Positions 34,950 to 55,223 of a stretch of 64,000 bases of DNA are shown here, one piece after another. Position numbers and translations under genes: made by a program. The DNA lies in assembly GCA_963675745.2 (NCBI GenBank), contig CAXXWX010000023.1, positions 96,001 through 160,000 of the forward strand, given 5' to 3'. This DNA comes from Phycisphaerae bacterium. GTDB lineage: Bacteria; Planctomycetota; Phycisphaerae; UBA1845; Fen-1342. Every line of letters begins with the position of its first letter. The first letter of the stretch is position 1. The notes under the pieces were generated by a model that was given only the letters and a program-made list of their open reading frames with translations, did not search any database and was not told the DNA's origin.

Positions 34950-36638
34950 CTATTCGAGGTAGCCCAGATCGCTGAGGCGCTGCTGCAGGATGCGCTTCTC
35001 TTCCTCGCTGTAAACCTCGTCGTGCGCCTCGGCCTCTTTCTTGATGGGCGGCTCATGCTCGACGACGAGCTTGGTGGAGAAGGCTCCGTCGATGACATGA
35101 CCTTCCATGTCGGCCGGCACGCGCAGACCCAGCAGCGCCAGCAACGTCGGGGCCACGTCGCCGATGTCCGCCGAAACGCGCACGCCGGGAGCGACATGCG
35201 GGCCGCCAATCGCCAGCACCCCCTCCACGCGGTGCGTGCCCTCCAGGCGTTTCAGTGACGACCAGCGCACCAGCCGGCTGCCGCGGATCTTACGCACGAC
35301 CGCGAGCCCCGGTTGCGGCACGAGCATCAGGTCGGGCAAGTCCGGGCTGTCATCGCGACTGCAACCGTACAGCTCTTCGGTCTTGTGGACTTCCGTGAAT
35401 ATCTTGACTGACTTGCCACGCGCGTTGCGCGTCTCGGCGCTGAGAAAGCGGGCGATCAGGTCGTCGCGAATCCGCTCGTAGTCAGCCGGGTCCACGATCC
35501 CGTGTGGGCCGCGGCCTTTGAGGTTGAGGTACAGGAAACCATAAATGCCCGCGTGCATTACACAGGCCTTGGTGCGTGACCAATCCACCGCCAGGTCGGA
35601 CTCGATGCCACGATTGCCCTGCTCGAAGCGCGTCATCTTGCCTTTGGAGAGGCGGTACAGCCAGTGGCGCGCGCGCGTCGCCGCCCGCTGTAGCGGGCTG
35701 TCGAGCGACAGGTAGCCCCAGCGGTGCAGCAGCAGATTCGCCTGGGCCTTTCCGTCGAGACTGCCATGCCCGTGGTCGGACATGATCAGCACGCCGGCTT
35801 CGCGCTGCTCGGCATACTTGAAAAACTTGAGCAACACGTCATCGAGGCGGCTGAAACACGCCGCGGCCATCTCCGCCTGCCGCGGGTAGTTCTTGTTGAA
35901 ACGCGGGTCCAGATACTTCCACGCCTTGTGCTGCAGGTTATCGACCAGCTTGAACATGACCATCAACACATCCCAGCCGTAGCGTTCGCCGCAGTAGCGC
36001 GCCAGATCCCAGCCCTGGTCAAAGCTGTTGGATATGTAGTCGAGGTTGGTGGCCAGCACGTCCTGCCCGCCGAGCGCCTTGCGCTGCCAGTTCGTGCGAT
36101 AGTTGTAATGCGGCAGGACGTCGAAAATCTCCTGCTTCAGTTCACGCGGATAGGTGAATTCCGCGTCGATGCTGGGGGTCTCAAAGCCGCTGATCATGAA
36201 GCCGTTGACCGGATGGGGTGGATAGGTCATCGGCACGTTGATGCTGCCGACGCGCAGCCCCTTGTCGCTGAGTATCTGCCAGATGGTTTTTTCGCGAATC
36301 TCATAGGTGCTGTTGAACGAGAGCTGTCCGTCCGCGACGCTGTACTTCTCGAAGTCGATGATGCCGTGGCGTCCGGGCCCCTTGCCGGTCATGAAGGTCG
36401 TCCAGGCGGCCGGTGTGATCGGCGGCATCGTCGAGCGCAGCACGCCCGCCGCGCCGTTGGCCACAAAACGCTTCAGGTTTGGCATACGGCCGGACTCCAT
36501 CATCGGGTCCAGCACGTCAAACGTGGCGCCGTCGAGCCCCAGAATCAAAACCCGTTTGAGAATCGGCTTGAGCGGCCGAGGTGCGGATGCCTCCGGCATG
36601 GCCTGGGGTGCCCGCACCGCCGCGGTTGTCTCACTCAT
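34950..36638 (-). CDS. AlkP-superfamily phosphodiesterase/phosphohydrolase (nucleotide pyrophosphatase type), cytoplasmic, with LxxLGYxE tail
   Basis: LGLDGAT, STMPPITPAAWTTFMTG, DNLQH, MSDHGH, GTHR; ends EEEKRILQQRLSDLGYLE. Confidence 0.9.
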   Translation of the reverse strand: MSETTAAVRAPQAMPEASAPRPLKPILKRVLILGLDGATFDVLDPMMESGRMPNLKRFVANGAAGVLRSTMPPITPAAWTTFMTGKGPGRHGIIDFEKYSVADGQLSFNSTYEIREKTIWQILSDKGLRVGSINVPMTYPPHPVNGFMISGFETPSIDAEFTYPRELKQEIFDVLPHYNYRTNWQRKALGGQDVLATNLDYISNSFDQGWDLARYCGERYGWDVLMVMFKLVDNLQHKAWKYLDPRFNKNYPRQAEMAAACFSRLDDVLLKFFKYAEQREAGVLIMSDHGHGSLDGKAQANLLLHRWGYLSLDSPLQRAATRARHWLYRLSKGKMTRFEQGNRGIESDLAVDWSRTKACVMHAGIYGFLYLNLKGRGPHGIVDPADYERIRDDLIARFLSAETRNARGKSVKIFTEVHKTEELYGCSRDDSPDLPDLMLVPQPGLAVVRKIRGSRLVRWSSLKRLEGTHRVEGVLAIGGPHVAPGVRVSADIGDVAPTLLALLGLRVPADMEGHVIDGAFSTKLVVEHEPPIKKEAEAHDEVYSEEEKRILQQRLSDLGYLE

Positions 36639-36883
36639 TTCGCTCACCTCGCTGCACAACCGCGCTGCCGGCCGAATCCCGCCACCGCCGGCACGCGGTC
36701 AGGTTGATGTGTGAGTATACGCCTCCTCGTTGTTTCTGTCATGCGCCGCCCGATTCGACCGCAAACCGGGCGCGGGCGAGATGTAGCGGCCACGACCTTA
36801 CTTCCCGGGCTCTTTGCGGATAACATCAGCGGATAAGCAGATCCCCCTGATCGGCTGACTTCCTGGTCGCGAGGTGGCTGGCC

Positions 36884-45088: not shown

Positions 45089-46366
45089 TCATACCTGCCT
45101 TGAGGCGGCCTTTGTCCAGAGCCGTCCTTCACCGCGTGCCGTACCGACTGGATCGTGCGTTACGACAAAAGCGGCCGCTGCTGAGATAATCATGAACGGC
45201 ATCAGCGGCACACGATAGCGCAAACTTCCGATATAGATGCAGTGTACGAGCGTGAAATAGGCGATCGGCAGCCACAGCAGCACAATCAGCAGCCGCCGGC
45301 GCCGACGTGCGCTGGGTGAGCCCAACTGCCCGACCAGGCGAAACACACCGACAAGCGAGGCGACGATCACCGGCAGCATGAACGCGGCGCTGACCAGCCC
45401 GGCCAGGCCGCCCCGGTATTGCTCGTAATTCGGGCGCGGATTCCACGTGCGCGCAAATTTCACGCCCGCCAGCCGTACCACGCGATACGGATCATGCCAC
45501 ATGTGGCGTCTGGCGAGTGCTCCCAGTCGGCGATCGACCTGAACCTCATCAAGCGCGGCCAATTCGGGCATGTGCTGGAGGAAGGATTGGTCACTGGCCC
45601 CGGTCGCTTGTGGGCCCTGCGCGTCATACAGCGTCACGCCGCCGTTGGTGCTCAGCCAGGCATAGCTGCCAATCACCAGGCGATTGCGCAACCCCCAGGG
45701 CAGCAGCAATGCGACGCACACCAGGCCAAGGCCGATCATGCGGTAAGCCGCCCGAATCCTGTTCTCGGAGAAGAGCCACAGAACCAGCCAGATAAGTGGG
45801 ATCCAAGCCGCCGCGGACGGTCGAGTCAGTATTGCAATCGGCCCTAATAGCGCCAAAGCGACCAACCCGCGCCGGCTGATCTCGTGCGGCCGCCTCAGCG
45901 TCATCCACGCCGTGTACGTCAGCCCCACGCCCGCGAGCGTGAACAGCACCTCCGTCAACAGCAGGTTGCAGAAGAAGATGCTGTATGGATCGCAGGCCGC
46001 CAACAGGCCGGCGATCAGGCCGGGACGCCGGCCGAGCGCTTCCTGTGCGAACCGATACACCAGCCACGCCGTGATCGCCCCGATGACAGCCTGCGCCAGG
46101 CGTGCGGCGAGGATGCCACCGGGGCCGCGCCACGCAAACAGTGCCAGGAACAGAGGATACAGCGGCATGCGCGCCGCATAGCGGCCGTCGTCGGTGGCCA
46201 GGATTCCGTCGCCGACCAGGTTCTGCGCCAGTTGCCAGTGCAGCGCTTCGTCGTCGAACTCGAGCGTCGGTGCCGCGCCGGCGGCGCGCCACACGACCCA
46301 TGCCAGCCGCAGCACCAGCGCGACCAGGAACACCCAGAAACCGGCGTTGCCGGACACGGTTCTCAT
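45089..46366 (-). CDS. ArnT/PMT-like GT-C (family 39/83-like) glycosyltransferase
   Basis: Polytopic; FDDE, RMPLYPLFLA, LLLTE, TRP, PWGLRN, STNGG, RYRVP. Confidence 0.85.
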   Translation of the reverse strand: MRTVSGNAGFWVFLVALVLRLAWVVWRAAGAAPTLEFDDEALHWQLAQNLVGDGILATDDGRYAARMPLYPLFLALFAWRGPGGILAARLAQAVIGAITAWLVYRFAQEALGRRPGLIAGLLAACDPYSIFFCNLLLTEVLFTLAGVGLTYTAWMTLRRPHEISRRGLVALALLGPIAILTRPSAAAWIPLIWLVLWLFSENRIRAAYRMIGLGLVCVALLLPWGLRNRLVIGSYAWLSTNGGVTLYDAQGPQATGASDQSFLQHMPELAALDEVQVDRRLGALARRHMWHDPYRVVRLAGVKFARTWNPRPNYEQYRGGLAGLVSAAFMLPVIVASLVGVFRLVGQLGSPSARRRRRLLIVLLWLPIAYFTLVHCIYIGSLRYRVPLMPFMIISAAAAFVVTHDPVGTARGEGRLWTKAASRQV

Positions 46367-47832
46367 ACGCGATCAACCTGGTGCGGCAACTGGGGGTGGA
46401 ATAACAGGTGTAGTGCCCGCTTGGTAGTGGATCGCAGTTTGACACGCTCATCGATGCGCAGCGGCATCACCCAGATGACCCCCGCCTGATCGCACACCAC
46501 GCCGGTGCGCGCCCGCTGTAGCGGGTCAATCTTCTCGCCGATCAGGAAATCGCTGATCGTCTTCGCGCCCGGGGCCCCCAGCGGGCGAAACCGATCACCA
46601 TCCCGGCGCCCGCGCACGAGTACCGGCGGCTGGACACGCTCCAGGTCAATCCACTCTTCGTACGGGCTGTTCGCGCGACGCAGCTCTTCGATCTTACCGG
46701 CGTCGATCGCGGTTTCCCGCAGTTCGAGATCAGCGCCGAGCGCCGGCAAGCGGGTCCGTCCCGGGCACTTGAGGTAGACAGTCGAAACCTCCGGCGCCGG
46801 CTCAACCTGTGCCTGCGGCCGAAAGTCCAGGCGGTCATACTGCTTCCGCACGGCGACGCGGCCGGGAAGGTGTACCTCCTTGCCGCTAGCCGGATCGTGC
46901 GCCAGCTTGAGCACCGCCTCAATGTGTGCAAAGCTCAGATCCTGCTCGCCGCCGATTACCAGCGAGCTGGCCAGCCGCACGACTTCCGCCTGGATGATCC
47001 TCTGTTTGGTGAGCAGGGCCTTGGCGTTCAACACCAGGCGCTGCGGGCCTTCAGAGACGATTAGTGAGTCAAACGTGCGTGCGGCGGCATCCTGCAAATA
47101 GGTGCCCAGCCAGCGCGCTTGCTCGCCGAGCCGCAGCAGCGCATCGGTGACGTTCGGGTTCATCTGCTCGCGCAACAGCGGAATGACCACATTGCGAATC
47201 CGCCCCCGCGTAAACAACGAGGCGGCGTTTGTCGAGTCACATCGGCTTGGCCAGCCGCGCTCTTCCAGCAGGCTGTCGATCCGCTCACGGCGCTGGTGAA
47301 GCAGCGGGCGGATCAGCCGTACGCGACTTCCCGCGCGAATCGGCCGTACCGCCAGCATGCCGGCCAGACCACGCAGTCCGGTACCGCGACAAATGCGGTG
47401 CAGAATCGTCTCGGCGTCGTCGTCTGCATGATGTCCCACCGCCACCCGGTCACTGCCGACCTTGAGGGCCACGCGTTCCAGGAATGCATAACGTTGCTCG
47501 CGGGCAACCTCTTCGGTGGAGCCCCCCCCGGCGGCAACCACGGCCGGGACGTCGATCTGTTCATGGTGAAAGGTGGCGTCCAGTTCGCCCGCCAATTCCC
47601 GGACGAACTCCTGGTCACCGTCGGCCTCCGCGCCGCGCAGGCCGTGGTGCAGGTGGGCCAGATGGAGCTTCCAGTCGAGATTGCGGCATTCTGACACTTC
47701 CGCCAGCGCGTGCGCCAGCAACGTGGAGTCGGGTCCGCCTGAGACGCCGACGACCCAGTGGCGGTCTGATTCGAGGATCTCGCGTTCGGCGAGCCAATCG
47801 GCCAGATCGTCACGAAAACCGTTCCAGGCCAC
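46363..47832 (-). CDS. tilS: tRNA(Ile)-lysidine synthetase
   Basis: VGVSGGPDS, HHGLRG, AREQRY, HHADDDAET, RGTG, IRPLL, RGRIR, GDRFRPLG; AAGGAG before GTG 47832. Confidence 0.95.
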   Translation of the reverse strand: MAWNGFRDDLADWLAEREILESDRHWVVGVSGGPDSTLLAHALAEVSECRNLDWKLHLAHLHHGLRGAEADGDQEFVRELAGELDATFHHEQIDVPAVVAAGGGSTEEVAREQRYAFLERVALKVGSDRVAVGHHADDDAETILHRICRGTGLRGLAGMLAVRPIRAGSRVRLIRPLLHQRRERIDSLLEERGWPSRCDSTNAASLFTRGRIRNVVIPLLREQMNPNVTDALLRLGEQARWLGTYLQDAAARTFDSLIVSEGPQRLVLNAKALLTKQRIIQAEVVRLASSLVIGGEQDLSFAHIEAVLKLAHDPASGKEVHLPGRVAVRKQYDRLDFRPQAQVEPAPEVSTVYLKCPGRTRLPALGADLELRETAIDAGKIEELRRANSPYEEWIDLERVQPPVLVRGRRDGDRFRPLGAPGAKTISDFLIGEKIDPLQRARTGVVCDQAGVIWVMPLRIDERVKLRSTTKRALHLLFHPQLPHQVDRV

Positions 47833-48352
47833 AGCAGCAGCTCCTTGGGTGAGTGCGCGCCGCCGGCAAGCGTCCATGCTGCCTCGTAACAGGGTGCGTC
47901 CCGAGCCACGAGGCGAACCATAAATGGTATACGAACGCGCCGACAGGTCCAGCCGGGATTGGCGCAGCGTGCGGTTGTCTGGCATCCAGCCGGTGGGTTC
48001 GATAGAATGGAATTGGTTTGCGCGAACCCCGGAACACGGCTGGCGGTCCTGCCATCTTACGGATTCACGGCTGCCTGGAGCCACGGCGCAATGAAGAAGC
48101 CTGCTGAATCCATAGCAAGGCGTGGCGGACTGCCAACCTGGTCTCCTGATGTGGCTACGCGAGGGAACAGCGGTCGTCGCTGATTGGTACCGCTGCTGCC
48201 AGTTATCGGATCAGTGTAACGTGATACGCCGCCGATACAGTGCAATATAATCTGCTGGAGGGGTTGGGCGTTTGAGTCGAACAGGCAGTGACCCCATCAG
48301 CAAACGAGGGGAATCCCGGGGGCGGCACGATGCCGCGTTCCCTTGATCAGAC

Positions 48353-50599
48353 GTGGAAAGGCAACAGATGTCGTGGCAATCTTCGGGCAGCCGACGTGCA
48401 ATACGCGCATGCGGCGCCTCCGGTACCGGTGCCGGCGAGGTGTTTCTGAGACGCGGGTTACTCGCGGCGTGCATTGTATATGCGCTCGCCAGCCCCGCGG
48501 AGGCATATATCGGCCCGGGAGCGGGTTTTGCGATCGCTTCCTCGTTTCTGACCGTGCTGGCGACGATGGCGCTGGCCCTGCTGGGGCTGATGCTGTGGCC
48601 GATCAACTGGTTGATCCGGTCAATCAGAGGACGCCGGGCCTTCGCAAAGGCCCGGATAAAGCGTCTGGTAATATTGGGCCTCGACGGCCTGGAACCCAGC
48701 CTCGTTGACCGCTTCATGGGCGAAGGCAAGCTGCCGAATCTGGCCAAGCTGAAAGAAACGGGTGGGTTCAGCCTGCTGGGCACAGTTTTACCACCACTGT
48801 CACCGGTGGCGTGGTCGACGTTTCTAACCGGCACAAACCCTGGCAAACACAATGTTTACGACTTCCTGAACTCCGACCGGCGCACCTACCTGCCCAGCCT
48901 GTCCTCAGTTCTGATCCGCCCGCCGACCAAGACCTTCAAGCTCGGCAAGTACGTTTTCCCGCTCAACAAGCCCGAGATTCGCCTGCTGCGCAAGGGCAAG
49001 CCATTCTGGCACACGCTGGGCGACCACGGCATATTCAGCTCGGTGATTCGCGTGCCGATCACGTTTCCGCCCGAGAAGTGCCGCGGCGTCGTTCTGTCCG
49101 CCATGTGCGCTCCCGACCTGCGCGGCACACAAGGGTTGTTCTCATTCTACAGCACACGTTCGGATGACAGCGAGGAGCGTACCGGCGGCGAGCAGATCCG
49201 CGTGCAGCGCGAAGGCGATCTGATTCGCTCTGAGCTTGTCGGGCCAGACAACAGCGTGGTGCTCGGCGAAGGCCCGATGAAAATCCCGTTCGAGGTGCGC
49301 ATCGCCGGCGAACGGGCGACCCTGCACATCGAAGGCGATCAGTATGACCTCGAGCCCGGAATCTACACGCCTTGGATAACCGTCAACTTCCGGGCCGGCA
49401 TGGGCATATCCGTTCAGGGCGTATGTCGTTTCATGCTGGTAAGAACGCAGCCCGAGTTCGAGCTGTACGTGATGCCGATCAACATCGATCCAGAGAAGCC
49501 GGCCATGCCGATCTCGCACCCGGTGGCGTACAGCACGTATCTCTCAAAGCGCTTCGGGTCGTTCGCAACACTCGGATTGGCCGAAGACACCTGGGCGCTG
49601 AACGAGGACTTGATCGACGACCAGGCATTCGTCGATCAGTGCATGTTCATCGACAGCGAGCGCGAGCAGCAGTTCTTCGACGCGATCGACAACACCGGCA
49701 ACGGGCTGGTGGTCTGTGTCTTTGACGGCACCGATCGGCTGCAGCACATGTTCTGGCGCTATTTGGAAGATGATCATCCGGCGCACCCCAAGAACCTCCA
49801 CCCCGAAACGTACAAACCCAATGGCAGCGAGCGGGTGCTTGAAGAGCTGTATATGCGCATGGACAAGCTCGTCGGCGAAACGATGGAGCGGACAGTCAAG
49901 CGCGACAAGAACACGGTGTTGATGGTCCTGTCCGATCACGGATTCTGCTCGTTCCGCCGCGGCCTGGATCTCAACGCCTGGCTAATCGAAAACGGCTACA
50001 TGAAGCTCAAGCCGGACGCCAAGCCGGGTGCCCAGTATCTCGCCGCGGTGGATTGGGAACACACGCGCGCGTACACGCAGGGATTGGCCGGGATGTTCAT
50101 CAACCAGAAGGGCCGCGAGGCCCAAGGTATCGTCGAGCCCGGCGAGGAAATGCAGAAGCTGAAGGACGAGATCAGCGCAAAGCTGACCGGCTTGCGCGAT
50201 CCGGCGAATGATGAGATTGCCATTCGCCGCGTGTTCGACAAGGAAAAGTCATATCAAGGCCCGTATCGCGCCACGGCCCCCGACCTGGTGATTGGATATA
50301 ACCGTGGCTATCGCATTGCGTGGGACACCGCGATCGGTAAAGTAACCGGCTCGGTCTTTCACGATAATACGAAGGCGTGGAGCGGCGACCACTGCATCGA
50401 CCCGGAACTGATCCCGGGCGTGATGTTCTGTAGCCACAAAATCGAGAGCGAGTCGCCGCGGCTGATGGATCTGGGGCCGACGGCGCTGGATCTGTTCGGC
50501 ATCGCGGTTCCCGCCAACATGGATGGCCGGCCGCTGAAGATCGCCGTTGGAAACGGGCATACCGCCGGAAAAACCGCGCCGGTCGCCGCGGCGGGGTAG
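48353..50599 (+). CDS. AlkP-superfamily phosphodiesterase with signal peptide-AYIGPGAG-TM N-terminus (start may be 48440)
   Basis: LGLDG, PPLSPVAWSTFLTG, DRLQHMFW, LSDHGF, WSGDH; no LGY tail. Confidence 0.9.
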   Translation: MERQQMSWQSSGSRRAIRACGASGTGAGEVFLRRGLLAACIVYALASPAEAYIGPGAGFAIASSFLTVLATMALALLGLMLWPINWLIRSIRGRRAFAKARIKRLVILGLDGLEPSLVDRFMGEGKLPNLAKLKETGGFSLLGTVLPPLSPVAWSTFLTGTNPGKHNVYDFLNSDRRTYLPSLSSVLIRPPTKTFKLGKYVFPLNKPEIRLLRKGKPFWHTLGDHGIFSSVIRVPITFPPEKCRGVVLSAMCAPDLRGTQGLFSFYSTRSDDSEERTGGEQIRVQREGDLIRSELVGPDNSVVLGEGPMKIPFEVRIAGERATLHIEGDQYDLEPGIYTPWITVNFRAGMGISVQGVCRFMLVRTQPEFELYVMPINIDPEKPAMPISHPVAYSTYLSKRFGSFATLGLAEDTWALNEDLIDDQAFVDQCMFIDSEREQQFFDAIDNTGNGLVVCVFDGTDRLQHMFWRYLEDDHPAHPKNLHPETYKPNGSERVLEELYMRMDKLVGETMERTVKRDKNTVLMVLSDHGFCSFRRGLDLNAWLIENGYMKLKPDAKPGAQYLAAVDWEHTRAYTQGLAGMFINQKGREAQGIVEPGEEMQKLKDEISAKLTGLRDPANDEIAIRRVFDKEKSYQGPYRATAPDLVIGYNRGYRIAWDTAIGKVTGSVFHDNTKAWSGDHCIDPELIPGVMFCSHKIESESPRLMDLGPTALDLFGIAVPANMDGRPLKIAVGNGHTAGKTAPVAAAG

Positions 50600-50611
50600 C
50601 CGCTGAGTGAG

Positions 50612-52663
50612 TTGGATATGCGCATAGCCGCCGCCGTAATAATCGTCGTCGTGAACCTGTTCGCGCTGATCTTCTTCTGGCCGAGTGGCGAAGGGGAAGA
50701 TGTGCGGCCACAGGCGGGGCGCGGCGATGGCAAAAAGGTGTTCATACTCGGGTGTGATGGGCTGGATGCCGAGCTCATCGAACGGATGCTGCGCGAGGGG
50801 CGCCTGCCGAACATGGCCAAGCTGGCCGCCAAGGGTGGATTTCGACCGCTCACGACCAGCATTCCGCCGCAAAGCCCCGTTGCCTGGTCGAACTTCATCA
50901 CGGGCGCCGGCCCCGGCGTACACGGCATCTTTGACTTCATTCACCGCGAGCCGGACAAGCAGTACGCCCCGTACTTCTCCACCAACTACTTCGCCCAAAA
51001 ACACAATTGGTGGATCACCAGGAAGCTGATTCCCGAAACGGTCGGCGGATATGTGCTGCGCGGCACCACACAGAACACGCTCATGCGCAAGGGTACGCCG
51101 TTCTGGGACTATCTCGACACGGCCGGCATCAAGGTCGACCTGTATCGCTTGCCGGCGAATTACCCCCCCAGCAAGTCGAAGTACGGCAACGTACGCTGCC
51201 TGCCGGGCATGGGTGTACCCGACGCGGTCGAGACCGGCACACAGGGAACCTACCAGCAGTTCACCACCAAACCGCGACGCGAGGTCGAACTGGGCGGCGG
51301 CAAGAAGTTCAAACTGCGGCGTGATCCAAAGACGCGCGCATATGTCGGCACGCTGCGCGGGCCGTCGAACATGTTGCTCGCCGACGCGCCCAACATGACG
51401 CTCGATTTCAGCGTGTACCGCGACCCCGAGCGCGACGCCGCGATCATAACCTATGAGAACAAGGGTATTGCCGGCACCGAAGAGGTGAGCATCCCGCTGA
51501 ACGTCGGGGAGTGGAGCGACTGGGTATATGTCGACTTTCCGCAAACCGGCCTGCGTGTTCCGGCGATGCGCACGATGGCGCGTTTCCTGCTACAGGGCGT
51601 GCGACCGCACGTGGACGTGTACGTCACGCCGCTGAACTTCGCGCCTGACGCGGCCCCGCCGGACTTCAGCGAGCCGTCCGACTTTGTCAAAGATATCGGC
51701 GAGGGGATCGGGCCTTTCTACACGCAGGGATTCGCTGAGGACTTCAAGGCCCGTGACCAGAACGTGTTGAGCGACGAGGAGTTTCGCCAGCAGGCCGAAC
51801 TCGTGCTTGACGAGCGAATGAAAATGCTGGACTTCGCGCTCGACAATTACGTGGACGGGCTGCTGTTCTTCTACTTTTCCAGTTCCGACTTGCAGGCGCA
51901 CATCTACTGGTGGGAATCAACCGATGAGCACCCGATCCGCTCATGGGAGGATGCGCAGCGCTTCAACCGCGTGGTCGAAGACGTCTACGTCAGGCTCGAC
52001 GAAGCGCTCGGCCACAGCCTGGAGCGGCTCGGCGAAGACCTCACCGTAATCGTCATGTCCGATCACGGATTCGGCAACTTCGGGCGCGGATTCGCGCTGA
52101 ACACGTGGCTGCGCGAGGAGGGCTACCTCGTCGCCGATCGCGGTCTCCTGTTCGACTGTGACTGGTCGCAGACGCGCGTATACGGCCTGGGCCTGAACGG
52201 GTTGTACCTGAACCTCAAGGGCCGTGAGCCCGAGGGCATCGTCGATCCGGCCGAAGCCGATGAGCTGCTTGACGAATTGTGCGACAAGCTGGTGGCCCTG
52301 CGTGACCCCGAGAACGGCCGACAGGTTATTCTCCGGTGTTACAAGACCAAGGACTGGTATCACGGCCCCGAGGCGGTCAACGCGCCCGACATCATTGTCG
52401 GATACGGCGCGGGGTATCGCTCGAGTTGGAATACGGCGTTGGGCGATTTCGACAAAAGCGTCGTGGTGCCGAATCACAGCGCCTGGAGCGCCGACCACTG
52501 CGTGGCGCGCGAGCTTGTGCCGGGCATCGTCATCGCCAACCGGCCGATCAATCGCGCTGACCCCGCCCTGATCGACCTGGCACCGACTATTCTCGGAGAG
52601 TTTGGGCTACCCACGCCCGAGACCATGACTGGACGCAACATTTTCGGGGCGCCGGAGGAGTGA
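50612..52663 (+). CDS. AlkP-superfamily phosphodiesterase with N-terminal signal anchor
   Basis: LGCDG, PPQSPVAWSNFITG, DLQAH, MSDHGF, WSADH; no LGY tail. Confidence 0.9.
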   Translation: MDMRIAAAVIIVVVNLFALIFFWPSGEGEDVRPQAGRGDGKKVFILGCDGLDAELIERMLREGRLPNMAKLAAKGGFRPLTTSIPPQSPVAWSNFITGAGPGVHGIFDFIHREPDKQYAPYFSTNYFAQKHNWWITRKLIPETVGGYVLRGTTQNTLMRKGTPFWDYLDTAGIKVDLYRLPANYPPSKSKYGNVRCLPGMGVPDAVETGTQGTYQQFTTKPRREVELGGGKKFKLRRDPKTRAYVGTLRGPSNMLLADAPNMTLDFSVYRDPERDAAIITYENKGIAGTEEVSIPLNVGEWSDWVYVDFPQTGLRVPAMRTMARFLLQGVRPHVDVYVTPLNFAPDAAPPDFSEPSDFVKDIGEGIGPFYTQGFAEDFKARDQNVLSDEEFRQQAELVLDERMKMLDFALDNYVDGLLFFYFSSSDLQAHIYWWESTDEHPIRSWEDAQRFNRVVEDVYVRLDEALGHSLERLGEDLTVIVMSDHGFGNFGRGFALNTWLREEGYLVADRGLLFDCDWSQTRVYGLGLNGLYLNLKGREPEGIVDPAEADELLDELCDKLVALRDPENGRQVILRCYKTKDWYHGPEAVNAPDIIVGYGAGYRSSWNTALGDFDKSVVVPNHSAWSADHCVARELVPGIVIANRPINRADPALIDLAPTILGEFGLPTPETMTGRNIFGAPEE

Positions 52664-52693
52664 CCGTTCGAGCGAGGTGGTTGATTGAGCAGC

Positions 52694-52743
52694 GTGGCTT
52701 GGGCGTCGCGCCCGAGGCGTCACAGGCGCGACGCCTGTGCCAC
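52694..52743. repeat. REP-like inverted doublet
   Basis: GTGGC-TTGGGCG tcg CGCCCGAG ... CACAGGCG cga CGCCTGTG-CCAC. Confidence 0.7.
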
Positions 52744-52786
52744 CGGTGTCCCACCGCCGCCCGCTTGTGTTATACAGGAGCACGCG

Positions 52787-52987
52787 ATGTTTGGCGGAAA
52801 CGTGAAGATTGACAAGCACCTGCTGGAGCGGGTCAAGAAGTACTCGAAGATCGCCGGCTATGGCACGCCCGATGAGTTTATCACGCATTGCCTCGAAAAG
52901 GAGCTCGAGCAGCTCGAAGCCGGCGAAGGTGGCGACGACGAACAGGCCATCATGGAACGTCTGCGCGGCCTGGGATACATTGAATAA
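52787..52987 (+). CDS. 66-aa RHH-like protein ending in LxxLGYxE
   Basis: AGGAG RBS; VKIDKHLLERVKKYSKIAGYGTPDEFITHCLEKEL is ribbon-helix-helix-like; tail DEQAIMERLRGLGYIE. Confidence 0.85.
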   Translation: MFGGNVKIDKHLLERVKKYSKIAGYGTPDEFITHCLEKELEQLEAGEGGDDEQAIMERLRGLGYIE

Positions 52988-53023
52988 TCCGGGCGCTACC
53001 CGGACGGAGCGATCAAGCAACCA

Positions 53024-53860
53024 ATGAACGTCGTCCTCGATGCGATCACGTTTTTGATGAACGGCATCGGCCGGGTGCTGTTTGTCACCGGCGGATTCCT
53101 CTCGCCCGCGCTCACGCTGCTGTTGATCTCGCAGGTGCTCGCGATCGGCATGCTGTATCTGTGGCGGTATACATCCAACCAGGACGCGATCGCCGCCGGT
53201 CGCCGAAAGATCTCCGCCTATCTGATGGCGACGTTGCTGTTCAAGGACAACCTGCGCGTCATGTTCCGCTCGCAACGGGTGATTCTGTGGGAGACGCTGA
53301 GAGTATTGGGGTACAGCGTTCCGCCCATGATTGTCATGCTGATCCCGTTTGCGTTAATCGTGGCGCAGATCGGGTTGCGCTACGAGTTTGACATGGCCCC
53401 CACCGGCCGGACCATTAACGTGCTGGCGCAGCTCAAATCACCCGATGGTCTCGACAAGGGTGGCGACCAGCTCAGCCTGCCCGACGGTGTGCGCAGCGCC
53501 CCGCTCGACCCGGTCCGCGCCGCGCCGATCGGCACGGTTACCTGGCGCCTCACCGCCGACAATCCGGGGGTCTACACGCTCAAATTCGGAGACGGGGACG
53601 ATGTTGTCGAGATGCCGCTGGCGGTCGGCGATGGGTTCCAACGCATCAGCGCCGTGCGGGGCGGTGGCGTTCTCACGCGGCTGATGTACTCGGCGTTGCC
53701 ATCCATACCGGCCGACTCGGTCTTCAAAGAGATCCGCATCGACTATCCGAAACGCTCGACATCTCTGTTCGGGTTTGACTGGCACTGGCTGATCTGGGTG
53801 CTGGTGCTATCGATCGTCTTCGGCTTTTTGTGGAAACCGGTGCTGAACGTGCAGATCTGA
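53024..53860 (+). CDS. DUF106/EMC3/TMCO1-like (Oxa1 superfamily) membrane protein with extracytoplasmic beta domain
   Basis: Amphipathic N-helix, TM1, basic coiled coil, TM2 (PPMIVMLIP), beta-rich insert, C-terminal HWLIWVLVLSIVFGFLWKPVL. Confidence 0.65.
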   Translation: MNVVLDAITFLMNGIGRVLFVTGGFLSPALTLLLISQVLAIGMLYLWRYTSNQDAIAAGRRKISAYLMATLLFKDNLRVMFRSQRVILWETLRVLGYSVPPMIVMLIPFALIVAQIGLRYEFDMAPTGRTINVLAQLKSPDGLDKGGDQLSLPDGVRSAPLDPVRAAPIGTVTWRLTADNPGVYTLKFGDGDDVVEMPLAVGDGFQRISAVRGGGVLTRLMYSALPSIPADSVFKEIRIDYPKRSTSLFGFDWHWLIWVLVLSIVFGFLWKPVLNVQI

Positions 53861-53878
53861 TCCGCCGACGCAAGCTGA

Positions 53879-54535
53879 TTACGACCCGATCGGCGGCTCG
53901 TCGTCCGTCCGGTCGTCCCCATTCACGATTACGTCAAGTGCCACGCGCACCGCTTCAATCTGGAGCGACAACCCCATCGACGCCCGCGGCGACGCATCAT
54001 TGACCATCTGCACCGGCAGCGATGGTAGATGGATAAAGCCGACGCGCGTGTTGCCGGCGCGCGTCGCGGCCCAGTGCAACGCGCGATAGAAAACCAGGTT
54101 GCACAGATGGCTCCCGGCGCTGAGCGAGCGAATGCACGGGATGCCGCGCTGGCGAATGGCCCGCTGAATACGACCTACCGGCAGCGTGGTCCAGTAGGCG
54201 GCGGGGCCGTCGGACGCGATCGGCTGATCGGTGGCGACCTCGCCGGCGTTGTCAGGCGTCTCGAAATCGACCAGGTTCGCCGCGAGCCGTTCGATGCGGA
54301 CGGCGGCCGCCCCGCGCGCTTCGCCCAGCGCCAGCACAACATCCGGCTGCACGGCCTCCAGCAGCTCACCCAACACCCGCGGCGCCGCGCCAACCACAAC
54401 CGGGAGCACACGCGCGTGCAGTCGGAAACCGGCGGGGGGCTCGCGGTCAATGGCCCCCACAACGTGCGCGGACGGATTCTCCGGCGATTCGGCGAACGCC
54501 TCGAATCCGGTCAACAGCACAGTCAAATCAGCCAT
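53879..54535 (-). CDS. pcp: Pyroglutamyl-peptidase I
   Basis: LLTGFEAF, NPS, LPV, ERLAAN, SAGSHLCN, GFIHLP. Confidence 0.92.
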   Translation of the reverse strand: MADLTVLLTGFEAFAESPENPSAHVVGAIDREPPAGFRLHARVLPVVVGAAPRVLGELLEAVQPDVVLALGEARGAAAVRIERLAANLVDFETPDNAGEVATDQPIASDGPAAYWTTLPVGRIQRAIRQRGIPCIRSLSAGSHLCNLVFYRALHWAATRAGNTRVGFIHLPSLPVQMVNDASPRASMGLSLQIEAVRVALDVIVNGDDRTDDEPPIGS

Positions 54536-54620: not shown

Positions 54621-55223
54621 CTACAGCTTGTGGAGCAGCCGAAGAGCCTCTTCGCGCGTGCTCATGTTCTTTTGCATCAAACCACGCAGGGCCGACGTCA
54701 CCATCACCGAGCCCGATTTGCGCACGCCGCGGCAGGTCATGCACGTATGCACCGCTTCGAGCACGACAGCGCAGCCCCTGACCTTCAGGCGTTTGGCCAG
54801 CAGGTCGGCGATCTGTGACGTGAGGCGTTCCTGCACCTGCGGCCGGCGGGCGAAATCCTCGACCACGCGCGCGAGTTTCGACAGGCCCAGCACCTTGCCG
54901 CCGGGAATGTAGGCCAGGTGGGCTTTGCCCTCGAACGGCAAAAGATGATGCTCGCACATGCTGTTGAAGGGCACGTCGCGCAGTGCGACCATCTCGTGAT
55001 GATCCTCGTCAAACGAGGTCATCAGGTGTCGCTCGGGGTCCAGGTGCAATCCGGCAAAGAGCTCAGCATACGCGCGGGCCACGCGCGCCGGCGTCTCCCG
55101 CAGGCCCTCACGCTCGGGATCCTCACCGACCGCGATCAGGATCTCGCGCACCGCACGCTCGATCCGCGGCAAGTCCATGTGGGGCTCAGATTGTCCAGCT
55201 TCTTCCGGCATTTGCACACCCAA
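54621..55223 (-). CDS. folE: GTP cyclohydrolase I
   Basis: [50 protein letters not shown]. Confidence 0.97.

Follow-up and report, generated by a model that had tools for sequence, protein, structure and literature searches.

A conserved bacterial branch of the archaeal-type Oxa1 fold within an enzyme module of Planctomycetota

What does a three-transmembrane protein of the archaeal and endoplasmic reticulum (ER) Oxa1 type do at the end of a bacterial operon that otherwise encodes enzymes of the alkaline phosphatase (AlkP) superfamily and a small protein? This question is raised by a 278-amino acid (aa) gene product, hereafter the target, encoded in a 64,000-nucleotide stretch of the genome of a Phycisphaerae bacterium (phylum Planctomycetota; assembly GCA_963675745.2, contig CAXXWX010000023.1, positions 96,001 to 160,000), hereafter the window. 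The available text of three sources treats the DUF106/EMC3/TMCO1/GET1 branch of the Oxa1 superfamily, with its three transmembrane segments (TMs), as archaeal and eukaryotic, and gives bacteria YidC only (PMC5868721, PMC8887752, PMC8675477); Lewis and Hegde discarded non-archaeal PF01956 sequences as ‘EMC3 and TMCO1’ (PMC8675477). Our literature search, which covered neither subscription journals nor supplements, found no published description of a bacterial DUF106-type family or of its cassette with AlkP genes. Our results indicate that the target represents a genuine, conserved branch that the archaeal-type Oxa1 fold has in bacteria, and that it resides within an enzyme module, for which we propose a testable mechanism.

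Family membership was established using two sequence profiles, one of 50 close relatives (A1) and one of 130 diverse relatives (A2), which were searched against 177,635 distinct sequences of the PDB. Each profile retrieved a single protein, MJ0480/Ylp1 of Methanocaldococcus jannaschii (DUF106, PF01956; 5c8j), with an E value of 5.1e-5 for A1 and of 3.6e-9 (39.5 bits) for A2, and P0017, a single relative, retrieved the same protein on its own (E 8.6e-5). The A2 alignment places query residues 7-120 on residues 8-125 of the MJ0480 chain, thereby spanning TM1, the coiled coil and TM2 with its two prolines, and continues in a weak but collinear stretch (247-273 on 172-198) over the last TM. The A1 profile is not promiscuous for membrane proteins: its sole match in the 5.2-Mb source genome (G000) is the target gene, which is single-copy there. 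Two relatives sharing 52-53% identity with the target, P0009 and P0017, exceed the PF01956 gathering cut-off of 27.1 bits (29.8 and 30.7 bits, respectively) over profile positions 9-113 of 169, and PF01956 matches were found in 24 of the 50 close relatives (E≤1) and in 9 of the 130 diverse ones (E≤0.01).

The AlphaFold2 model of the target, computed from an alignment of 50 homologues, has a mean pLDDT of 89.3 and a pTM of 0.77. In a wide fold search using VIA-align, the top match of this model (residues 22-278) was chain 8 of 7tut, with a Z score of 11.0 and a root-mean-square deviation (rmsd) of 3.3 over 136 aligned residues, 3 Z units above the next row. This chain is probably TMCO1, which the entry contains. 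The entry itself is described as a substrate-engaged ER multipass translocon (PMC12572126). Other searches returned less: Foldseek with the whole model gave nothing at E≤0.001 and matches to the immunoglobulin (Ig)-like domain only, and residues 1-125 had no match among the named clusters of the ESM Atlas. Hits of the target to the NCBIfam families ComGG (0.041) and PgsC (0.86) were discarded as far under their cut-offs, and SxtJ (PF19588), seen in 28 of 50 relatives, was taken as noise, its best match (E 0.0037) reaching 18.4 bits against a cut-off of 24.4. PADLOC matched none of the four operon proteins.

Two observations weigh against the assignment. A Z score of 11.0 lies below the level of about 13 that the search tool holds safe for helical proteins, such that a common helical arrangement is possible, and the target itself has no PF01956 match, either among proteins at E≤1 or in a six-frame search at E≤10, nor any named family in Pfam or NCBIfam. 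Because relatives with 52-53% identity pass the Pfam threshold while the target does not match, we regard it as a member of a divergent subfamily rather than as a DUF106 protein by the Pfam criterion. From the MJ0480 profile match and the top fold match, we consider it highly probable that the target represents a diverged bacterial offshoot of DUF106/Ylp1 in which an Ig-like domain has been inserted between TM2 and TM3. The Oxa1-superfamily, DUF106-type assignment proposed in an earlier note on this DNA, made from the sequence alone, is thus borne out.

The gene and the parts of its product are as follows (all + strand).

53024..53860: target gene, DUF106/Ylp1-like Oxa1-superfamily membrane protein with Ig-like insertion, 278 aa (ATG start in the list of open reading frames (ORFs); model, homology and fold match)
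53027..53089: N-terminal helix, residues 2-22, predicted on the periplasmic side (DSSP on the model; neutral charge; topology inferred)
53105..53173: TM1, residues 28-50, with conserved S36, ending in the near-invariant T50-S51-N52-Q53 (model and conservation)
53180..53311: basic coiled-coil hairpin, residues 53-96, predicted cytoplasmic, with the conserved tip L72-F73-K74-D75 (model, conservation and charge)
53312..53383: TM2, residues 97-120, with P101, P108 and Q115 (conservation; aligns to TM2 of MJ0480)
53384..53785: Ig-like beta-sandwich insertion, residues 121-254, predicted periplasmic, with W174, G182 and Y241 near-invariant (model and fold search)
53786..53845: TM3, residues 255-274, with W255 and S263, and a short basic tail from K271 (conservation; weak collinear match to the last TM of MJ0480)

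Secondary structure assigned to the model by DSSP comprises helices 2-22, 28-50, 53-72 and 77-120, strands within 130-253 and a final helix 255-274. In the predicted structure, helices 53-72 and 77-96 form a hairpin that continues into TM2, which carries P100-P101-M102 and P108; the last TM begins at H254-W255 and the protein ends in HWLIWVLVLSIVFGFLWKPVL. Model and sequence together reproduce the layout that the earlier note had read from the letters, namely an N-terminal helix, TM1, a basic coiled coil, TM2 with ‘PM.....P’ and a tryptophan-rich TM3, and the model contains both the three-TM core and the coiled coil whose absence the note had named as counter-evidence. The note had also anticipated a beta-sandwich-like domain between TM2 and TM3; the domain is indeed a beta-sandwich of Ig-like type, although it measures approximately 133 aa rather than about 120. 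Its resemblance to filamin- and invasin-type Ig-like domains is generic (Z scores of 6.2-6.6, rmsd of 2.2-2.6, 73-76 residues aligned).

The layout is a conserved feature and not a chance arrangement, since the relatives are near-uniform in length and mostly align end to end: at E≤1e-3, 51 relatives were recovered, nearly all of 267-294 aa, and a search of cluster representatives gave 1542 at E≤1e-3 and 864 at E≤1e-10, nearly all of about 275 aa and matched over their full length. The rarity of such proteins in bacteria implied by the earlier note is contradicted by a bacterial family of this size. Among the 130 diverse relatives, the most constant positions are W255 (129/130), Q53 (128/130), S51 (126/130), P101 (122/130) and P108 (120/130), followed by S36 (116/130), Q115 (110/130) and S263 (106/130). 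Loop 51-96 contains 8 lysines and arginines for 3 acidic residues, the beta domain 14 for 17, and both values equal the means over the 130 relatives. Because this charge pattern obeys the positive-inside rule, the coiled coil is predicted to be cytoplasmic and the beta domain periplasmic, giving an overall topology predicted as N-out, coiled coil in, beta domain out and C-in. Each of the three TMs carries a conserved polar residue, and these three residues, S36, Q115 and S263, may line a lipid-exposed polar groove over TM1, TM2 and the last TM.

Relative to bacterial YidC (PF02096), the target shares the superfamily fold, Bacillus halodurans YidC2 (3wo7) being recovered by VIA-align with a Z score of 7.8 but an rmsd of 7.0 over 151 residues. 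It lacks the five-TM core, having three TMs only, and no sequence match was found in either direction between YidC and the family, whether with PF02096 against the target or with the A1 and A2 profiles against the YidC chains of the PDB. The periplasmic beta-sandwich of Gram-negative YidC, P1, separates TM1 from TM2, whereas the beta domain of the target lies between the last two TMs. Similarity to MJ0480/Ylp1 extends to the three TMs, the coiled coil, the two prolines of TM2 and a tryptophan at the start of the last TM, which Lewis and Hegde give as a feature of archaeal YidC (PMC8675477). Unlike MJ0480/Ylp1, the target has the Ig-like insertion of about 133 residues between TM2 and TM3, a bacterial host that also has YidC, and a place in an enzyme operon. 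TMCO1, EMC3 and GET1 of the ER resemble the target in having a core of three TMs and a coiled coil in the cytosol, and its best fold match is chain 8 of 7tut; at the sequence level, neither A1 nor A2 matched any EMC3, GET1 or TMCO1 chain of the PDB. Each of these ER proteins belongs to a fixed complex, in which it acts together with partner proteins (Lewis and Hegde 2021, PMC8675477). The candidate partners of the target are enzymes rather than proteins like EMC6, GET2 or C20orf24.

The family is spread patchily. It was detected in 39 of 301 sampled genomes of the phylum Planctomycetota (25 of the 190 good-quality ones) and in only 1 of 16 sampled genomes of the class to which the source genome belongs. 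All 30 named loci come from Planctomycetota or Phycisphaerae metagenome-assembled genomes, and the neighbours of the whole target in the ESM Atlas are unnamed bacterial clusters labelled Acidobacteriota, Aminicenantota and Planctomycetota. The source genome encodes a canonical YidC elsewhere (G000:C6:263945-264655; PF02096, E 5.7e-50) in a 723-aa open frame. Given this YidC and the patchy distribution of the family, the target is not the housekeeping insertase of the cell.

The target gene is the last of a four-gene operon spanning 48353-53860, in which it is preceded by three genes of the same strand.

48353..50599, + strand: AlkP1, nucleotide pyrophosphatase/phosphodiesterase (NPP)-type AlkP-superfamily enzyme, 748-aa ORF (PF01663, E 2.5e-30; model)
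50612..52663, + strand: AlkP2, NPP-type AlkP-superfamily enzyme, 683 aa, with one N-terminal hydrophobic segment (PF01663, E 1.1e-36)
52784..52987, + strand: small ribbon-helix-helix (RHH)-like protein, 67 aa, ending in ERLRGLGYIE (conserved ATG at 52784; the listed ORF runs from 52685)

The operon is flanked by a divergent gene (46363-48084) and by a convergent pyroglutamyl peptidase I gene (53879-54535, − strand; PF01470, E 3.6e-51), which is followed by an ORF on the same strand (54621-55223, −); neither of these two convergent genes is conserved beside the cassette. A scan of 47800-54200 for promoters and terminators gave counts within chance.

Conservation of this neighbourhood was analyzed at two depths. 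Of the 30 close loci, 28 have an AlkP2-like gene immediately upstream of the target gene, the exceptions being one locus cut at the start of the target and one without an AlkP2-like gene within 1.5 kb. The small gene occurs in 29 of these loci and AlkP1 in 21, with contig ends accounting for most of the missing AlkP1 genes, and the genes downstream of the target are not conserved. In the 38 other positive genomes of the 301-genome sample, where identity to the target is only 23-35%, an AlkP gene is directly upstream in 36 and the small gene is present in 34. The association of the target with adjacent AlkP enzymes, on which the earlier note had built its functional reading, therefore holds, and more strongly than the sequence alone could show. 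Cassettes L020, L022, L037 and L047 have only the exported AlkP, AlkP1 being missing from the fetched DNA. L047 (G026:C74, 6129-8826) represents a minimal version in which a lipoprotein-type AlkP gene is followed by the target, with neither the small protein nor AlkP1 in the fetched DNA. Conversely, L061 and L063 (genomes G063 and G088) have extra AlkP1-like pieces on both sides of the APS kinase gene cysC, such that three or more genes of AlkP type precede the small protein and the target in succession.

The N-terminus of AlkP1 has a highly conserved organization. In the window, a leader-like segment ending in AEA is followed by an invariant YIGPGAG, a TM, a basic stretch and the catalytic domain; the true start of AlkP1 is probably downstream of 48353. 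The motif Y[IVF]GPG[AP]G is present in 35 of 35 AlkP1 N-termini, and in 32 of them a small-x-small pattern immediately before the tyrosine closes a leader-like hydrophobic stretch. Throughout the 35 orthologues, the 24 residues after the TM hold 5-10 lysines or arginines and 0-1 acidic residues, and the LGLDG that begins the catalytic domain follows directly. The AlkP1 of L033 has its tyrosine motif after a 12-residue N-tail, without a leader. A motif of the YIGPGAG type occurs once in the six-frame translation of the source genome. From these sequence features, we predict that the AlkP1 N-terminus forms either a hairpin resembling that of procoat or, once the leader has been cleaved, an N-out anchor, and that the catalytic domain is cytoplasmic. 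In the AlphaFold2 model of AlkP1 (pLDDT 85.2, pTM 0.85), a helix of 42 residues (20-61) runs into an AlkP core that contains a beta-rich insertion. Among solved structures, the closest in fold are Xac NPP, ENPP1, PafA, SPAP and PhnA (Foldseek E of about 3e-9, 11-14% identity), ENPP6 also being among the nearest folds of the NPP-like operon enzymes; by sequence, AlkP1 matched only generic superfamily members.

AlkP2 is predicted to be exported, and to be a lipoprotein in most lineages, because its orthologues carry lipobox-like, twin-arginine translocation (Tat)-like or hydrophobic N-termini. Among 43 of them, a strict script found a lipobox-like sequence in 26 and inspection by eye in 28, while the script flagged two Tat-like signals, of which one (L033) is clear by eye; the remainder, as in the window, have a plain hydrophobic segment. 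AlkP1 and AlkP2 would then be sister enzymes on opposite faces of the membrane. The earlier note had suggested that the target inserts the AlkP proteins, or moves a lipid-linked substrate for them; with the two enzymes predicted on opposite faces, membrane insertion of the AlkP proteins could apply at most to the N-terminal hairpin of AlkP1.

The third partner, the small protein, shows a sequence pattern like that of RHH proteins, lacks a TM and ends in the invariant G-L-G-Y-I-[ES], of which G62, L63, G64 and Y65 are invariant in 46 sequences; no match was found for it in Pfam, NCBIfam or the PDB. The LGY tail was found at two further sites in the source genome. In the window, a third NPP-type AlkP enzyme (34950-36659, − strand; 569 aa; PF01663, E 5.2e-39), cytoplasmic and with neither signal nor TM, ends in QQRLSDLGYLE and so carries the tail in cis, while the cassette supplies it in trans via the small protein. 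On another contig, a second small protein ending in RERLRALGYIE (G000:C13:146190-146438; L055:8203-8442, + strand) is encoded directly upstream of a TauE/SafE permease gene (L055:8553-9476, + strand; PF01925, E 5.6e-28). Besides the copy before the target, locus L060 has an extra gene of this kind (412-666, + strand; weak tblastn score of 33) just upstream of cysC.

Clustering of the ORFs flanking the distant loci, with recurrent families named by Pfam, revealed a single recurrent set upstream on the same strand: ATP sulfurylase (Sat; PF01747 with PUA_2, E 7.7e-94), an AlkP/sulfatase-like protein of about 300 aa (AlkP300; PF00884, E 1e-8 to 8e-7) and adenosine 5′-phosphosulfate (APS) kinase (CysC; PF01583, E 1e-61 to 1e-64). 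The usual order is Sat - AlkP300 - CysC - AlkP1 - AlkP2 - small protein - target. APS kinase is within the fetched DNA of 20 of the 38 genomes (15/20 and 5/18 in the two sets), and several loci end just upstream of AlkP1. The gene for AlkP300 is exemplified by L035:1715-2671 (+ strand), with counterparts in L036, L038-L040, L043, L044, L050-L052 and L065; its product could be a hydrolase of 3′-phosphoadenosine 5′-phosphate (PAP) or of pyrophosphate (PPi), or a sulfuryl-transfer enzyme. No phosphate-regulon or lipid-synthesis gene recurs among the flanking families. This recurrent linkage to synthesis of 3′-phosphoadenosine 5′-phosphosulfate (PAPS) would point to sulfate rather than phosphate chemistry. 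At the genome level, APS kinase is present in 39 of 39 positive genomes and in 184 of 262 negative ones, an association that is weak because the gene is common and related genomes are not independent.

Two precedents in archaea make a sulfate reading plausible. In Halobacterium salinarum, the AlkP-superfamily proteins Agl30 (VNG1056C) and Agl31 (VNG1057C), one membrane-associated and the other soluble, are needed for N-glycan sulfation, and are thus an example of proteins with the AlkP fold that serve sulfation instead of hydrolysis (PMC11980604). They differ from the enzymes of the cassette in being described as sulfatase-like (S1-type) and not NPP-like, and the available text of that source reports no Oxa1-like partner, LGY-tailed protein or opposite-face pairing for them. 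The second precedent is a cluster of Pyrococcus yayanosii with the order copG - sat - DHH pApase - type I phosphodiesterase/NPP - cysC and TauE adjacent (PMC8268124), which combines an RHH/CopG protein, Sat, an NPP-type AlkP enzyme, APS kinase and TauE. This composition recalls the Sat - AlkP300 - CysC set before the cassette and the LGY-tailed small protein beside TauE in the source genome. Neither a membrane-anchored enzyme pair nor a DUF106-like gene is described there in the available text, in which the NPP is guessed to remove PPi.

How, then, might these proteins work together? We tentatively propose, as the foremost of several readings though with less than even confidence, that the target is the dedicated membrane subunit of a conserved, two-sided, PAPS-linked module of four proteins that carries out group transfer, and not a general insertase. 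The target would link cytoplasmic AlkP1, together with the tailed small protein, to periplasmic AlkP2 across the membrane, with the TSNQ motif and the basic coiled coil turned to the cytoplasm and the Ig-like domain to the periplasm. The putative polar groove (S36, Q115, S263) would take up the YIGPGAG turn of AlkP1 or a charged intermediate, and a group made from cytoplasmic PAPS, namely sulfate, would be handed out to AlkP2. A more specific and improbable version is a trans-membrane sulfuryl relay, in which the Oxa1 fold has been repurposed from protein insertion to conducting a chemical group. AlkP1 would take sulfate from PAPS, the carrier being the tyrosine either of the LGY tail of the small protein or of the AlkP1 YIGPGAG; the sulfate-bearing tyrosine would pass the thinned polar groove of the DUF106-like protein, and AlkP2, docked on the Ig-like domain, would transfer the sulfate to envelope glycans, lipids or proteins.

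Several points weigh against a PAPS-linked module. Neither the window nor any of the 30 close loci has a PAPS gene adjoining the cassette, and in the source genome CysC and Sat are on another contig (contig 19), approximately 190 kb apart; moreover, APS kinase is a frequent gene in the phylum, present in 223 of 301 genomes. The two weakest family matches, L072 (G178:C71; E 1.2e-8) and L073 (G298:C27; E 1.6e-4), have no AlkP, small-protein or CysC genes in their fetched flanks, and may be diverged stand-alone copies or false positives. Lastly, AlkP1 is closest in fold to nucleotide pyrophosphatases and phosphatases, and PPi hydrolysis has been guessed as the activity of the archaeal NPP beside sat and cysC (PMC8268124), such that the chemistry may instead involve phosphate or nucleotides. 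This opens the way to the same two-sided module acting on phosphate esters, in which the groove would scramble a substrate, either lipid-linked or a phospholipid, and NPP-like enzymes on the two leaflets would cut or transfer it, for instance in head-group remodelling or phospho-polymer synthesis. Both enzymes belong to PF01663 with NPPs, PafA, SPAP, PhnA and ENPP6 as nearest folds, the PAPS genes are absent from the immediate surroundings in the window and the close loci, and lipid scrambling by YidC has been stated (PMC11997395). Yet Sat and CysC stand directly before the cassette, on the same strand, in many lineages; LGY-tailed RHH proteins adjoin sulfur-anion genes (TauE in G000, CysC in L060); and the flanking families offer no recurrent phosphate-regulon or lipid-synthesis gene, such that we hold this phosphate-ester module, including its examples, to be improbable.

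Stronger competition comes from a client-specific insertase or assembly chaperone, whose task would be to insert the procoat-like N-terminal hairpin, or N-tail, of AlkP1 and perhaps to retain it, much as YidC handles M13 procoat and Pf3 coat, without any catalytic or transfer role. The AlkP1 N-terminus, with its AxA-ending leader, 8-residue polar turn, TM and basic cluster in 32-35 of 35 orthologues, would suit such a role, as would the leaderless 12-residue N-tail before the tyrosine motif in L033; short translocated segments are classical substrates of the Oxa1 superfamily (Anghel 2017, PMC5868721), and the target combines the fold of that superfamily with polar residues that could form a groove. 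However, the canonical YidC of the cell should manage such a hairpin, the cassette is retained where AlkP1 is missing from the fetched DNA (L020, L022, L037 and L047), and insertion leaves the near-invariant Ig-like domain, the TSNQ motif and the invariant small protein unexplained; we therefore rate this explanation as unlikely, while still a serious contender. The RHH-like pattern of the small protein invites a different reading, a trans-membrane regulator or sensor whose Ig-like domain binds a periplasmic ligand or AlkP2 and whose coiled coil relays the signal to AlkP1 or to the RHH protein, the latter acting as a CopG-type transcription factor held at or released from the membrane. A CopG gene, a putative regulator, does head the archaeal sat-pApase-NPP-cysC cluster (PMC8268124), and the second LGY-tailed small protein of the source genome is encoded upstream of the TauE permease gene; but no family match backs DNA binding by the small protein, and a simple anchor has no need of an Oxa1 core with conserved intramembrane polar residues, which makes both forms of this reading quite improbable. 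Least probable by far is a second general-purpose archaeal-type insertase gained by gene transfer, its linkage to AlkP genes being due to chance or co-transfer. It could appeal to homology with Ylp1, which binds ribosome-nascent chain complexes in vitro (Anghel 2017, PMC5868721); against it stand the gene order kept down to 23-35% identity in 36 of 38 genomes, the patchy occurrence of the family (39/301) and the lack of a long basic C-terminal tail, residues 271-278 of the target containing a single lysine or arginine.

The target and its relatives thus constitute a large bacterial family of the archaeal and ER-type Oxa1 branch that has an added periplasmic domain, coexists with YidC and accompanies a specific set of enzymes. 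Such a family offers a natural test of whether the groove of the Oxa1 fold can be devoted to one client, or to something other than protein insertion, a question relevant to insertases, to scramblases and to the origin of the ER insertases. The cassette also represents a probable envelope module, as yet unstudied, whose sister enzymes are predicted to face opposite sides of the membrane and which recurs next to genes for PAPS synthesis. If true, the sulfuryl relay would explain how bacteria sulfate their surface from a donor made only inside the cell, and the module may be a missing route for bacterial surface sulfation.

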